Virus record (IMG/VR): IMGVR_UViG_2563366903_000003
Location: 1-4,263 of that record
From: a virus
Taxonomy: Duplodnaviria; Heunggongvirae; Uroviricota; Caudoviricetes
Direction: 5' to 3' (one strand)
DNA: 4,263 nucleotides
Under the pieces are notes generated by a model. It made no database searches. It was not told the DNA's origin and saw only the letters and a list, made by a program, of their open reading frames with translations. Positions 1 to 716 of this stretch are shown in pieces. How positions within the stretch are numbered: position 1 is the first letter of the stretch; every line of letters begins with the position of its first letter. The translations under genes were made by a program, and so were the position numbers.

Positions 1-552
1 CGCGGAACAGGAATATGGCTTACCGCCTCCTTCACCATCTGCTCAAGCATCGGACGCACATCATCGGGAGTGATACTTTTACCGTTCGCCGGTACCGGAA
101 TATTCGCAACCGCATCATTCACCGCCTTCTGCAATACTTCCGGATCGTAGTCACGACCATCACGCGGAACAGGAATATGGCTTACCGCCTCCTTCACCAT
201 CTGTTCAAGCATCGGACGCACATCATCCGGGGTGAGACTTTTACCGTCCGCCGGCTGCGGAATATTTGCGACCGCATCATTCACCGCCTTCTGCAGAACA
301 TCGGGATCATAGTCACGACCGTCGCGCGGAACAGGGATATGGCTTACCGCCTCCTTCACCATCTGTTCAAGCATCGGACGCACATCATCCGGGGTGAGAC
401 TTTTACCGTCCGCTGGCTGCGGAATATTTGCGACCGCATCATTCACCGCCTTCTGCAGAACATCCGGATCGTAGTCACGACCATCACGCGGAACAGGAAT
501 ATGGCTTACAGCCTCCTTCACCATCTGCTCAAGCATCGGACGCACATCATCG
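1..552. repeat. 162-bp direct tandem repeat, about 3.4 copies (1..162, 163..324, 325..486, 487..552); array probably continues beyond window start
   Basis: Unit beginning cgcggaacagg recurs at 1, 163, 325 and 487. Period is exactly 162 bp (54 codons). Copies are about 90-96% identical. No unique spacers separate the units. Confidence 0.95.
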
Positions 553-716
553 CCCGTCACGCACTTCTGTAATACCACAGACAGGGAAGCCAGTTTTTCT
601 TCAAACATTTGTGCCTGCGCGGCTATTTTCCCCTCAAATGTGCGCTGTAAATCCGCCAGCACTGTGGAGAATTCTTCACCCAGCGCACGGATAATGGACA
701 GTTCACGCTCAGTCAT
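1..716 (-). CDS. Tandem-repeat protein, partial (start at 716; C-terminus beyond window start); function unknown, probably head/virion-associated
   Basis: Minus-strand frame is open from ATG at 716..714 to the window edge (about 238 codons, translated by hand, no stop). The ATG overlaps the portal stop codon as ATGA (716..713). A purine tract GGGGGA lies about 10 nt upstream. Unique N-terminus MTERELSIIRALGEEFSTVLADLQRTFEGKIAAQAQMFEEKLASLSVVLQKCVTG is followed by 54-aa units DGRDYDP[D/E]VLQKAVNDAVANIP[Q/V]PA[D/N]GKS[L/I]TPDDVRPMLEQMVKEAVSHIPVPR. All 6 nucleotide differences between copies 163..324 and 325..486 are synonymous in this frame. Missing from the ORF track because no stop codon falls inside the window. 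Confidence 0.75.
   Translation of the reverse strand, partial: MTERELSIIRALGEEFSTVLADLQRTFEGKIAAQAQMFEEKLASLSVVLQKCVTGDDVRPMLEQMVKEAVSHIPVPRDGRDYDPDVLQKAVNDAVANIPQPADGKSLTPDDVRPMLEQMVKEAVSHIPVPRDGRDYDPDVLQKAVNDAVANIPQPADGKSLTPDDVRPMLEQMVKEAVSHIPVPRDGRDYDPEVLQKAVNDAVANIPVPANGKSITPDDVRPMLEQMVKEAVSHIPVP

Follow-up and report, generated by a model that had tools for sequence, protein, structure and literature searches.

In an Escherichia coli lambdoid, Stx-type long-tailed prophage, the portal gene of the head module is followed directly by a minus-strand late gene, here given the working name ext, which is very probably a real, separate and selected gene. Its product is most likely a variable-length, fibritin-like fibre linked to the portal, composed of an N-terminal helix, a stalk of acidic 54-aa repeats and a CBM5/12-like tip; we give this explanation, taken as a whole, a probability of about 0.6. 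The window, which means the whole stretch of 4,263 nt analysed here, holds the 5' two-thirds of the gene. The gene order of the head module is terS, terL, protease–capsid fusion, a small ORF, portal, ext and the head–tail connector. The features of the window are collected in Table 1; the small ORF is called 'hypothetical' in annotated relatives.

Table 1. Features of the ext gene and its neighbours in the window.
Feature	Position	Strand	Basis and remarks
ext gene, 5' part (238 codons)	1..716	-	Translation; runs off the window edge
ext start codon ATG	714..716	-	Overlaps portal TGA (715..713), giving ATGA; family N-termini align at Met
SD-like AGGGGG	728..733	-	11 nt 5' of ext ATG; unpaired in the predicted RNA fold
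G5 run within AGGGGG	728..732	-	G6 at the equivalent site in a sister lineage
ext N-terminal helical domain (aa 2-55)	552..713	-	AF2 helix; helix present across the family alignment
ext tandem array, 3.4 x 162 nt / 54 aa	1..551	-	Tandem Repeats Finder, repeat search, copy substitutions
HK97-family portal gene, 454 aa	713..2077	-	PF04860, E=7e-81; phrog_2271 positions 1-451
Small conserved ORF, 73 aa, between capsid and portal genes	2023..2244	-	phrog_829, E=1.7e-38
Prohead protease–major capsid fusion gene, 645 aa	2289..4226	-	PF04586 and PF05065; phrog_617

As the initial annotation had described, no stop interrupts the minus strand between the ATG at the portal stop and the window edge, a reach of 238 codons (window positions 3–716) whose translation begins MTERELSIIRALGEEF. 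Only an antisense ORF (15..572, plus strand) had been listed for this region, because the ORF list omits frames that run off the source. In the closest relatives (97–98% DNA identity), the frame meets no stop just beyond the point that matches position 1 and continues to 407 aa (L001) or 461 aa (L002 and L003). The tandem array, with 93% matches and no indels in Tandem Repeats Finder and three in-register copies at 92–93% identity in the repeat search, is far beyond chance. The repeats had been described as perfect and in frame; the 54-aa register stands, and the copies are near-perfect, at 92–93% DNA identity, rather than perfect. Copies 1 and 2 encode identical protein and differ by eight synonymous and no non-synonymous changes, and copy 3 differs from the others by 10–12 synonymous and five non-synonymous changes. 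Such synonymous-biased differences place the minus-strand frame under selection and make the plus-strand ORF its shadow, in line with the original call. The repeat is acidic and rich in Pro, Asp and Val, also as first noted (unit pI 4.6; D 14.8%, P 13%, V 13%), and each 54-aa unit consists of two 27-aa half-units, each formed by an amphipathic helix and an IPxPxDG(K/R)(S/D) linker. Among relatives with near-identical head modules, the number of repeats varies from 1 to 7, and the protein length changes in steps of 54 aa (245, 299, 353, 407, 461, 515 and 569 aa).

At the junction, the 4-nt stop/start overlap of the window belongs to a widely conserved arrangement. Forty diverse loci were drawn from Enterobacterales, Pseudomonas, Burkholderiales, Rhizobiales and Sphingomonadales, and in every one the ORF preceding ext is homologous to the portal (phmmer E from 1e-63 to 1e-211). 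The portal stop and the ext start overlap by 4, 1, 8, 16 or 17 nt across these loci, the 4-nt form occurring in 24 of them, and an SD-like motif (AGAGGA, AAAGGA, AAGGAG or AGGGGG) lies at the equivalent place, 4–11 nt before the ATG, in all 40. The same setting, an HK97-type portal upstream, overlapping stop and start codons and a connector (Phage_connect_1) downstream, is found for the ext of the window, for L001 and for the 40 loci. The earlier proposal of a separate cistron starting within the portal stop is thereby borne out. In the window, the bases of AGGGGG double as the codons for a conserved R-G of the portal C-terminus. The ext gene would be translated from its own ATG with this SD-like element inside the last portal codons, and its expression would be coupled to translation of the portal, given that the SD-like run falls within portal coding sequence and that stop and start codons share bases. 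The spacer of 11 nt between AGGGGG and the ATG exceeds the optimum, a point that counts against the favoured explanation.

The G run at this junction is polymorphic. In a sister lineage, one extra G (G6 instead of G5) joins the portal and ext frames into an 859-aa 'portal'. The polymorphism is real: IMG/VR contains 60 G5 and 41 G6 sequences, 5426 complete E. coli genomes contain 1190 G5 and 1382 G6 places, and the window's own haplotype occurs in those genomes 277 times as G5 and 14 times as G6. In a neighbour-joining tree of 99 junction flanks, the G5 lineages are deep, with up to 12.6% divergence, whereas G6 occurs in two shallow clades only; G5 is the state at the root, and the state changed at least seven times among the 99 sampled sequences. 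The outgroups L103, L105 and L108 are split and carry G5, and phages BP-4795 and FSL SP-016, both viable, have portal and ext split as well. On these grounds the split form is, with good confidence, the ancestral, normal and functional one. A second, independent in-frame fusion to the portal is seen in P0243 (1237 aa), which was found in two samples. A one-base indel, in a run that serves both as the SD-like element of ext and as the R-G codons of the portal, thus switches between two cistrons and one fusion protein.

One rival reading, in which the repeat is a non-coding element or 15..572 is the real gene, draws on this ORF being the sole one listed for the region; it is already refuted, as Rfam gives no match at E<=1, thousands of homologues lie in the minus frame, and only in that frame are the changes from copy to copy synonymous. 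RefSeq treats portal and ext together as one pseudogene ('phage portal protein, frameshifted'), and in a genome carrying both forms PGAP calls the G5 copy a pseudogene and the G6 copy an intact 859-aa protein. In this account, the prophage is decaying, an 859-aa portal has been broken by a 1-nt deletion and the downstream ORF is a non-functional remnant. Ogura's Stx2a_WGPS4 and Stx2a_WGPS8 records likewise read 'portal protein, pseudogene', the 859 positions of the phrog_2271 profile span both ORFs, fused copies are many (the 1382 places above) and the portal was scored as defective, whatever the cause, in several Sakai prophages (Asadulghani 2009, PMC2669165). The comparative data largely refute it, and it is now very improbable: the split is the deep, diverse and outgroup state, shared by BP-4795 and FSL SP-016; it is kept at 30–55% protein identity across proteobacterial classes with ATG, SD-like motif and stop/start overlap all conserved; and ext stays intact while its repeat number shifts in frame. 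Purifying selection acts on ext in the G5 lineages, where motif-anchored canonical copies give a pN/pS of 0.16 in the C-terminal domain and of 0.31 at the N-terminus, and the canonical C-terminus is kept in 40 of 45 complete G5 copies. The frameshifted label is explained as an artefact of judging G5 copies against the derived, fused G6 lineage. Equally improbable is a programmed -1 frameshift in G5 phages, in which some ribosomes would slip at G_GGG, with the rare AUA codon next, or at A_AAA ahead of the stop, leaving most portal subunits at 454 aa and letting a few carry the fibre, as in lambda G/GT. If tRNA-Gly slipped by -1 within the G run, exactly the G6 protein would result; the distant relative L101 has a canonical U_UUA_AAA heptamer just before its stop, and an SD-like element lies 5' of the A_AAA site, as in dnaX. 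True frameshift partners, however, lack an ATG and SD motif of their own, whereas ext always has both and its N-terminus aligns at the Met. The 40 junctions have no slippery heptamer in common, several of them being 1-nt TGATG overlaps or overlaps of 8–17 nt, and the RNA fold at the junction has no stable structure flanking the site (z = +1.1). As a general mechanism, frameshifting was rejected on the heterogeneity of the junctions and the RNA fold.

The gene had been reported as unannotated. It is not wholly missing from the records: RefSeq lets the portal pseudogene swallow it, and phage records list it as 'hypothetical protein' or as a second 'portal protein'. The fused relatives are the source of the portal name: PF04860 lies wholly in the 454-aa ORF and matches neither the 238-aa fragment of the window nor the 407-aa full-length ext. 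The label of a broken portal or of a second 'portal' thus stands on about 1190 G5 copies in complete E. coli genomes and in many records of Stx phages, and the comparative evidence indicates that these copies are an intact, selected and separate gene. Relabelling them bears on calls of prophage 'defectiveness' in EHEC, including Stx1- and Stx2-converting phages.

The ext family is very large, catalogued and uncharacterised, and it always adjoins the portal gene. An exhaustive HMMER search gave 5782 clusters at 50% identity, spanning phages of alpha-, beta- and gammaproteobacteria. Among 149 representatives, with the query's own cluster left out, the median length is 392 aa and only two reach 800 aa or more; of ten representatives scanned, P0243 is the only one with a portal domain. 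The closest catalogued families are PHROG 2271, of which ext corresponds to positions 455–859 (E=9e-270), and PHROG 1289 (E=3e-195). The initial annotation had recognised no standard head protein, and no HMM of any kind contradicts it with a scaffold, decoration, connector or MuF match; in particular, the Phage_Mu_F domain finds no match to ext in Pfam, PHROGs or NCBIfam, and NCBIfam has no family for the standalone protein. PF28083 is precomputed for relatives of ext and was absent from the Pfam scans run here. DUF4244 (32.4 bits, above the cut-off), TetR_C_35, FliG_N and other Pfam matches were rejected as artefacts of the repeated amphipathic helix, because each had zero or one short stretch and neither structure nor context backed it. 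In the literature searched, we found no functional experiment, virion proteomics or structure for any member of the family, and a homologue was still termed 'an additional unknown gene' in 2024 (PMC11409702).

Full-length ext in relatives, at 245–569 aa, comprises an N-terminal helix, one to seven 54-aa units and an all-beta C-terminal domain of about 140 aa. In the AF2 model of a homologue, the helix covers residues 3–50 with pLDDT 85–92, in agreement with the helical N-terminus read from the window. The repeats are predicted to be helical with low confidence as a monomer (pLDDT 50–70), and the C-terminal domain reaches pLDDT 96–98. This domain, beyond the window edge, is the most conserved part of ext in the alignment across alpha-, beta- and gammaproteobacterial phages; it carries the motif KSYPRGTYA...GGLWR...GWEC...GD.VTWGGS.WHC...KPG in all close relatives and is predicted to end in a CBM5/12-like fold. 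The CBM_5_12 profile scores 21 bits for the E. coli ext, below the Pfam cut-off of 26.2, 29.8 bits for the homologue P0122, above it, and 22–26 bits for other homologues. The BFVD matches are phage proteins with collagen repeats, CBM5/12 or ChiC_BD modules, and they include pectinesterase-type proteins of more than 1000 aa, aligned over about 155 columns. Runs of at least four consecutive G-X-Y collagen triplets occur in 66 of the 149 representatives and are absent from the E. coli ext. A PDB sequence search with ext returned only designed helical-repeat proteins and the Anabaena CIS protein All3316, the latter a weak match limited to the motif Y..GD.V...LW.

From this architecture, we favour by a small degree a fibre that is associated with the virion and binds a glycan with its tip. 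Of the functions first put forward, the fibre has the best support, from the segmented helices, the collagen-like inserts of homologues, the CBM5/12-like tip and the variable number of repeats. The protein would probably form a trimer, its N-terminal helix docking at the portal, and its stalk would consist of short amphipathic helices between IPxPxDG linkers, growing and shrinking in 54-aa steps. The connection with the portal is drawn from the conserved adjacency and coupling arrangement and from the two independent in-frame fusions, in the E. coli G6 clade and in P0243. The tip would bind a conserved glycan; for an external fibre this could be a polysaccharide of the cell surface, and for one released from inside, peptidoglycan. 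An external location is put forward tentatively, with an internal one only a little less likely. To our knowledge, every portal solved so far has its C-termini inside the capsid; viable-looking portal fusions therefore argue for an internal location and fit poorly with an external adhesin. Conservation of the C-terminus across bacterial classes is unusual for a receptor-binding tip and points to a universal ligand or to a partner within the phage. With a segmented stalk, a CBM-like tip and an occasional fusion to the portal, the position of ext in the particle is a well-posed and testable question.

The in-frame portal fusions keep an internal, portal-bound protein in consideration, and this is the main competitor of the fibre, though an unlikely one. 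The N-terminal helix would then bind the portal within the capsid, at its flexible C-terminal tail or at its crown, in the manner of the P22 portal barrel or of SPP1 gp7, a minor head protein bound to the portal, with the acidic stalk along the portal axis, and the protein would be retained or expelled before the DNA so that the CBM-like tip binds peptidoglycan. The two independent fusions to the portal C-terminus, the 859-aa form (phage 2851 and the G6 clade) and the 1237-aa P0243, suit this arrangement, as do the acidity of the stalk (pI 4.4), a portal linker of about 70 aa that closes with a short helix immediately ahead of the junction, the cross-class conservation of the C-terminal domain noted above and the place of ext directly after the portal gene, which is the place of gene 7 in SPP1. 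Against it, ext has no homology to MuF/gp7 or to P22-type barrels, the proteins nearest to it in structure are external fibres or spikes that carry collagen and CBM modules, and exposed fibres typically have stalks of variable length and inserts of the collagen type. Moreover, a covalently fused copy could not be ejected, and the fused clades are shallow, perhaps tolerated accidents in which free protein is still made from the internal ATG. Phage 2851, which has the fused form, is presumably infectious. In a more specific version, quite improbable as one reading, ext would act as a harpoon, held inside the head by the flexible C-terminal tails of the portal and leaving through the tail channel before the DNA so that the conserved tip grips peptidoglycan; the G5/G6 run in its own ribosome-binding site would be a mutational toggle between a releasable, separate form and a captive, portal-fused form, giving phage populations two types of particles. 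If true, ext would stand for a new class of ejection or portal-accessory proteins in siphoviruses, and its G run for a fusion switch of a new kind, embedded in an SD. A scaffold or head-size ruler built from repeats had also been among the initial candidates, and helical repeats within the head gene block would agree with it; yet head modules that are almost identical differ in carrying anything from 1 to 7 repeats, the capsid gene already has its own protease and coiled-coil segment, and a conserved CBM-like beta tip would be out of place in a scaffold, which leaves this function highly unlikely.

Among known systems, the direct orthologues of ext are ORF59 of BP-4795 (YP_001449296, 'portal protein') and SP016_00155 of FSL SP-016 (hypothetical), which share its position after the portal, the 4-nt overlap, the N-terminal helix, the repeats and the C-terminal domain, and differ from it only in repeat number and point differences. 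WP_012817878 (859 aa; gp3 of phage 2851) contains the same two modules as portal and ext, more than 90% identical, in a single polypeptide whose junction is one G longer. Portal and ext are two cistrons in the window, and the single-polypeptide form is a derived one of little phylogenetic depth. SPP1 gp7/MuF proteins and the P22 portal barrel resemble ext in being encoded directly after the portal or fused to its C-terminus, and a physical link of ext to the portal crown is likely; ext differs from them in having no MuF domain, no barrel homology and a fibre-like architecture. CBM5/12 modules such as those of Serratia ChiB, Streptomyces ChiC (ChBD) and Erwinia EGZ (CBD) are carried by enzymes, while the CBM5/12-like fold of ext is on a putative phage fibre and, unlike theirs, is preceded by an extra beta subdomain without a clear PDB match. 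A purely functional comparison, without homology in sequence or fold, can be drawn with fibritin (Wac), which forms the neck whisker of T4, and with gp8.5, the head fibre of phi29. These are accessory fibres near the head or neck, with an N-terminal attachment region, a segmented alpha-helical stalk with loops and a small C-terminal domain. The putative ext fibre would differ from them in carrying a CBM5/12-like tip instead of a foldon and in having its gene coupled to that of the portal.

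The four long ORFs of the window all lie on the minus strand. Across its full length, the window matches lambdoid long-tailed prophages at 90–98% identity; of 5426 complete E. coli genomes, 1256 carry such a match. Stx1/Stx2-converting siphoviruses, among them BP-4795, 2851, 1717, and YYZ-2008, match as well. In the relatives, the module starts with HNH, terS, terL, protease-capsid, small ORF, portal, and the repeat gene, followed by the head-tail connector, head closure, gp10, gp17, and then a lambda-like tail. The S78 prohead protease and the HK97-fold capsid form one polypeptide with a coiled-coil-like linker between them. 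Compared with the classic HK97 order, the position of this gene upstream of the portal gene is reversed; a matching protease-capsid/portal layout was noted in a 2024 analysis of alphaproteobacterial prophages, where the post-portal gene was described as "an additional unknown gene" (PMC11409702). The small ORF between the capsid and portal genes is conserved, and its last 55 nt overlap the portal start; small genes of 55 aa in Salmonella phage FSL SP-016 and of 53 aa in the metagenomic locus L158 occupy the equivalent site. A terminator-like hairpin (ACCGCTGCGGCGGT) with a T run, cut by the window edge, stands between terL and the capsid gene; AGGAGG and then the protease-capsid GTG start come directly after it. 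This is the one terminator-like site in the window, versus 3.5 expected by chance.

Features of the window and their coordinates
Feature	Position	Strand	Remarks
Terminator-like hairpin and T run	4250-4263	minus	cut by window edge
Prohead protease-major capsid fusion	4226..2289	minus	645 aa; PF04586 + PF05065
Small ORF	2244..2023	minus	73 aa; phrog_829, function not assigned by that family
HK97-family portal	2077..713	minus	454 aa; PF04860 E=7e-81
G5 run	728..732	minus	portal/repeat-gene junction
Repeat gene, open frame	ATG 716..714 to window edge	minus	translation, 238 codons
Tandem array	1..551		162-nt unit x 3.4
Antisense ORF	15..572	plus	shadow of repeat gene

Since the repeat-gene frame continues past the window edge, the ORF tool left it out. 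The initial annotation had proposed a real, portal-coupled gene here, and this core reading holds: the minus frame stays open to the window edge, and its ATG does share the claimed ATGA with the portal stop. Copies 1 and 2 of the array differ in this frame by eight synonymous and no non-synonymous changes, which settles the minus strand as coding and bears out the view of the plus-strand ORF as an antisense shadow. The 54-aa repeats, described as perfect and in frame, are indeed in frame without indels, but their nucleotide identity is 93%. The unit is acidic (pI 4.6) with abundant Asp, Pro, and Val, as had been stated, and divides into two half-units of 27 aa, both made of a helix and then IPxPxDGxx. 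Against the alternative that the repeat is a known non-coding element, an Rfam search matched no family. Two domain matches on the repeat fragment (3-716, minus), DUF4244 (32.4 bits against a 27-bit gathering cut-off) and TetR_C_35 (31.4 bits), look like spurious matches caused by the repeated amphipathic helix.

The gene had been taken as unannotated; the databases do hold it, as a large, catalogued, uncharacterised family systematically mislabelled "portal" or "frameshifted portal". PGAP merges the portal and repeat ORFs into one pseudogene ("phage portal protein, frameshifted"), and PHROG 2271 is an 859-position "portal" profile in which the window portal aligns to 1-451 and the repeat protein to 455-859. 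Numerous database proteins are in-frame portal-repeat fusions, reading ...AVKAMFRGDTEKMTERELS..., and the fused and split genes differ by a single base, G6 versus G5. The window junction is TTCAGGGGGATACTG, and with its G5 run the portal ends in RGILRK*, its TGA overlapping the repeat-gene ATG. G5 and G6 junctions are both common, at 60 and 41 in IMG/VR, 1190 and 1382 places in complete E. coli genomes, and 277 and 14 in the window's own flanking haplotype. Strain E2863 holds both, the G5 copy called a pseudogene by PGAP and the G6 copy an intact 859-aa protein. BP-4795 is split (G5) and phage 2851 fused (G6), and as both records are presumably Sanger-era, a sequencing artefact would be an unlikely source of the difference. 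The "frameshifted" label was found on all four G5 copies checked, and the approximately 1190 G5 copies in RefSeq complete E. coli genomes probably carry it. It is a systematic annotation artefact, which raises pseudogene counts in STEC prophages. In the Sakai prophages Sp3, Sp6, Sp9, and Sp12, the portal was scored defective (Asadulghani et al. 2009; PMC2669165).

Four lines of evidence identify the split arrangement as a functional, selected state and, with a probability of about 0.85, as the ancestral one; this is added here to the catalogued family, together with the double role of the G run, as the putative ribosome-binding site of the repeat gene and as the place where a fusion indel recurs. 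In a neighbour-joining tree built on the 560 nt flanking the G run, the G5 sequences form deep, diverse lineages (divergence up to 12.6%) and the G6 sequences two shallow clades; parsimony places G5 at the root with at least seven state changes, and both states occur within each of two identical-flank haplotypes. Searched exhaustively with HMMER, 1.84 billion representatives yielded 5782 clusters at E<=1e-3 and 627 at E<=1e-30. The 149 representatives outside the query's own cluster have a median length of 392 aa, only two reaching at least 800 aa, and one of ten scanned against Pfam contains a portal domain (P0243, 1237 aa). Furthermore, 40 loci were compared from Pantoea, Atlantibacter, Kluyvera, Enterobacter, Erwinia, Morganella, Pseudomonas, Delftia, Variovorax, Rhizobium, Mesorhizobium, Sphingomonas, and others. 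In these, a portal homologue is the ORF directly upstream of the repeat gene (phmmer E from 1e-63 to 1e-211), with an overlap of 4 nt (24 loci), 1 nt (7), 8 nt (4), 16 nt (4), or 17 nt (1). All 40 junctions have, 4–11 nt upstream of the ATG, an SD-like purine motif (AGAGGA, AAAGGA, AAGGAG, or AGGGGG), hence the reading of the G5 run as a ribosome-binding site; the run doubles as codons for the conserved R/K-G of the portal C-terminus. The N-termini of the family proteins align at the Met of the overlapping ATG, and within G5 lineages the C-terminal domain has a pN/pS of 0.16 and the N-terminus one of 0.31. The split state also occurs in Salmonella phage FSL SP-016, a plaque isolate.

Programmed frameshifting is ruled out as a general mechanism, because the portal/repeat-gene junctions have no conserved slippery heptamer and their RNA folds into no stable structure (z = +1.1). 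A minor fused product may nevertheless arise from the E. coli G5 sequence, as a -1 slip on G_GGG would recreate the G6 protein exactly. The G5/G6 toggle would gain significance if it has phenotypic consequences.

In the closest E. coli relatives, the complete repeat gene encodes 407 or 461 aa and ends 4 nt inside the head-tail connector gene. In the 101 sequences that contain the junction, complete ORFs measure 245, 299, 353, 407, 461, 515, or 569 aa, corresponding to one to seven units, in frame every time, and all share the C-terminus ...AAKRGRDAGGGK. For a homologue, AF2 predicts an N-terminal helix (residues 3-50, pLDDT about 90), a repeat stalk of helices (pLDDT 50-70), and, at the C-terminus, an all-beta domain about 140 aa long (pLDDT 96-98). 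Foldseek against viral models matched collagen-triple-helix, CBM5/12, and ChiC_BD phage proteins, including proteins of >1000 aa with pectinesterase-type domains, with about 155 columns aligned. At least four consecutive G-X-Y triplets occur in 66 of the 149 representatives, and collagen segments are obligate trimers. The variable-length segmented helical stalk, the collagen-like inserts of relatives, and the CBM-type tip point to a trimeric fibre with a putative glycan-binding tip; this predicted fibre-like product with a CBM5/12-type tip is likewise new here. Such a fibre would work in the manner of T4 fibritin and the phi29 head fibre, without homology to them.

A literature search turned up no study of function, proteomics, or structure for the repeat protein, which is likely a virion component. 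Its gene is invariably adjacent to the portal gene and is fused in frame to the portal C-terminus in two independent cases, the E. coli G6 clade and P0243; both observations favour a physical connection with the portal. P0243 itself (3001-6714 in the metagenomic loci L158/L159) is a natural portal-fibre fusion found in two different metagenome samples, combining a linker of about 70 aa that is rich in Ser, Pro, and Asp with about 26 short PDIxxMVxxAVxxIxLPxPEPL-type repeats and the same C-terminal domain. We tentatively favour an external fibre at the portal vertex or neck. The C-terminal crown faces the capsid interior in every known portal structure, which favours instead an internal protein tethered to the portal, placed much as SPP1 gp7 or the P22 barrel is. 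This placement is rated slightly below the external one: every structural analogue is an external fibre or spike, and the fused clades are shallow and keep an internal ATG and SD-like motif, from which free protein could still form; an internal, portal-tethered ejection protein would carry greater significance. The C-terminal domain is the most conserved part of the protein across bacterial classes, which is unusual for a host-specific receptor binder and suggests a universal ligand (e.g., peptidoglycan) or a phage partner.

Further rearrangements were observed among the relatives. In Escherichia phage vB_EcoS_phi330 (PV189401.1, 1660-4402), the portal, the repeat gene, and a neighbouring gene are each broken into several short CDSs, suggesting multiple frameshifts, possibly sequencing errors, and not the single G5/G6 difference. 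IS600 (IS3-family) is inserted within the portal region in NZ_CP075852.1 and NZ_AP045176.1, whose prophages are otherwise near-identical. In two close E. coli prophage relatives, a full-length porin gene annotated as ompC (L001 3554-4717, L002 3618-4781) is located inside the tail module, flanked by minor tail protein L and by the tail protein that follows the tape measure; it resembles a moron that could change the host surface.
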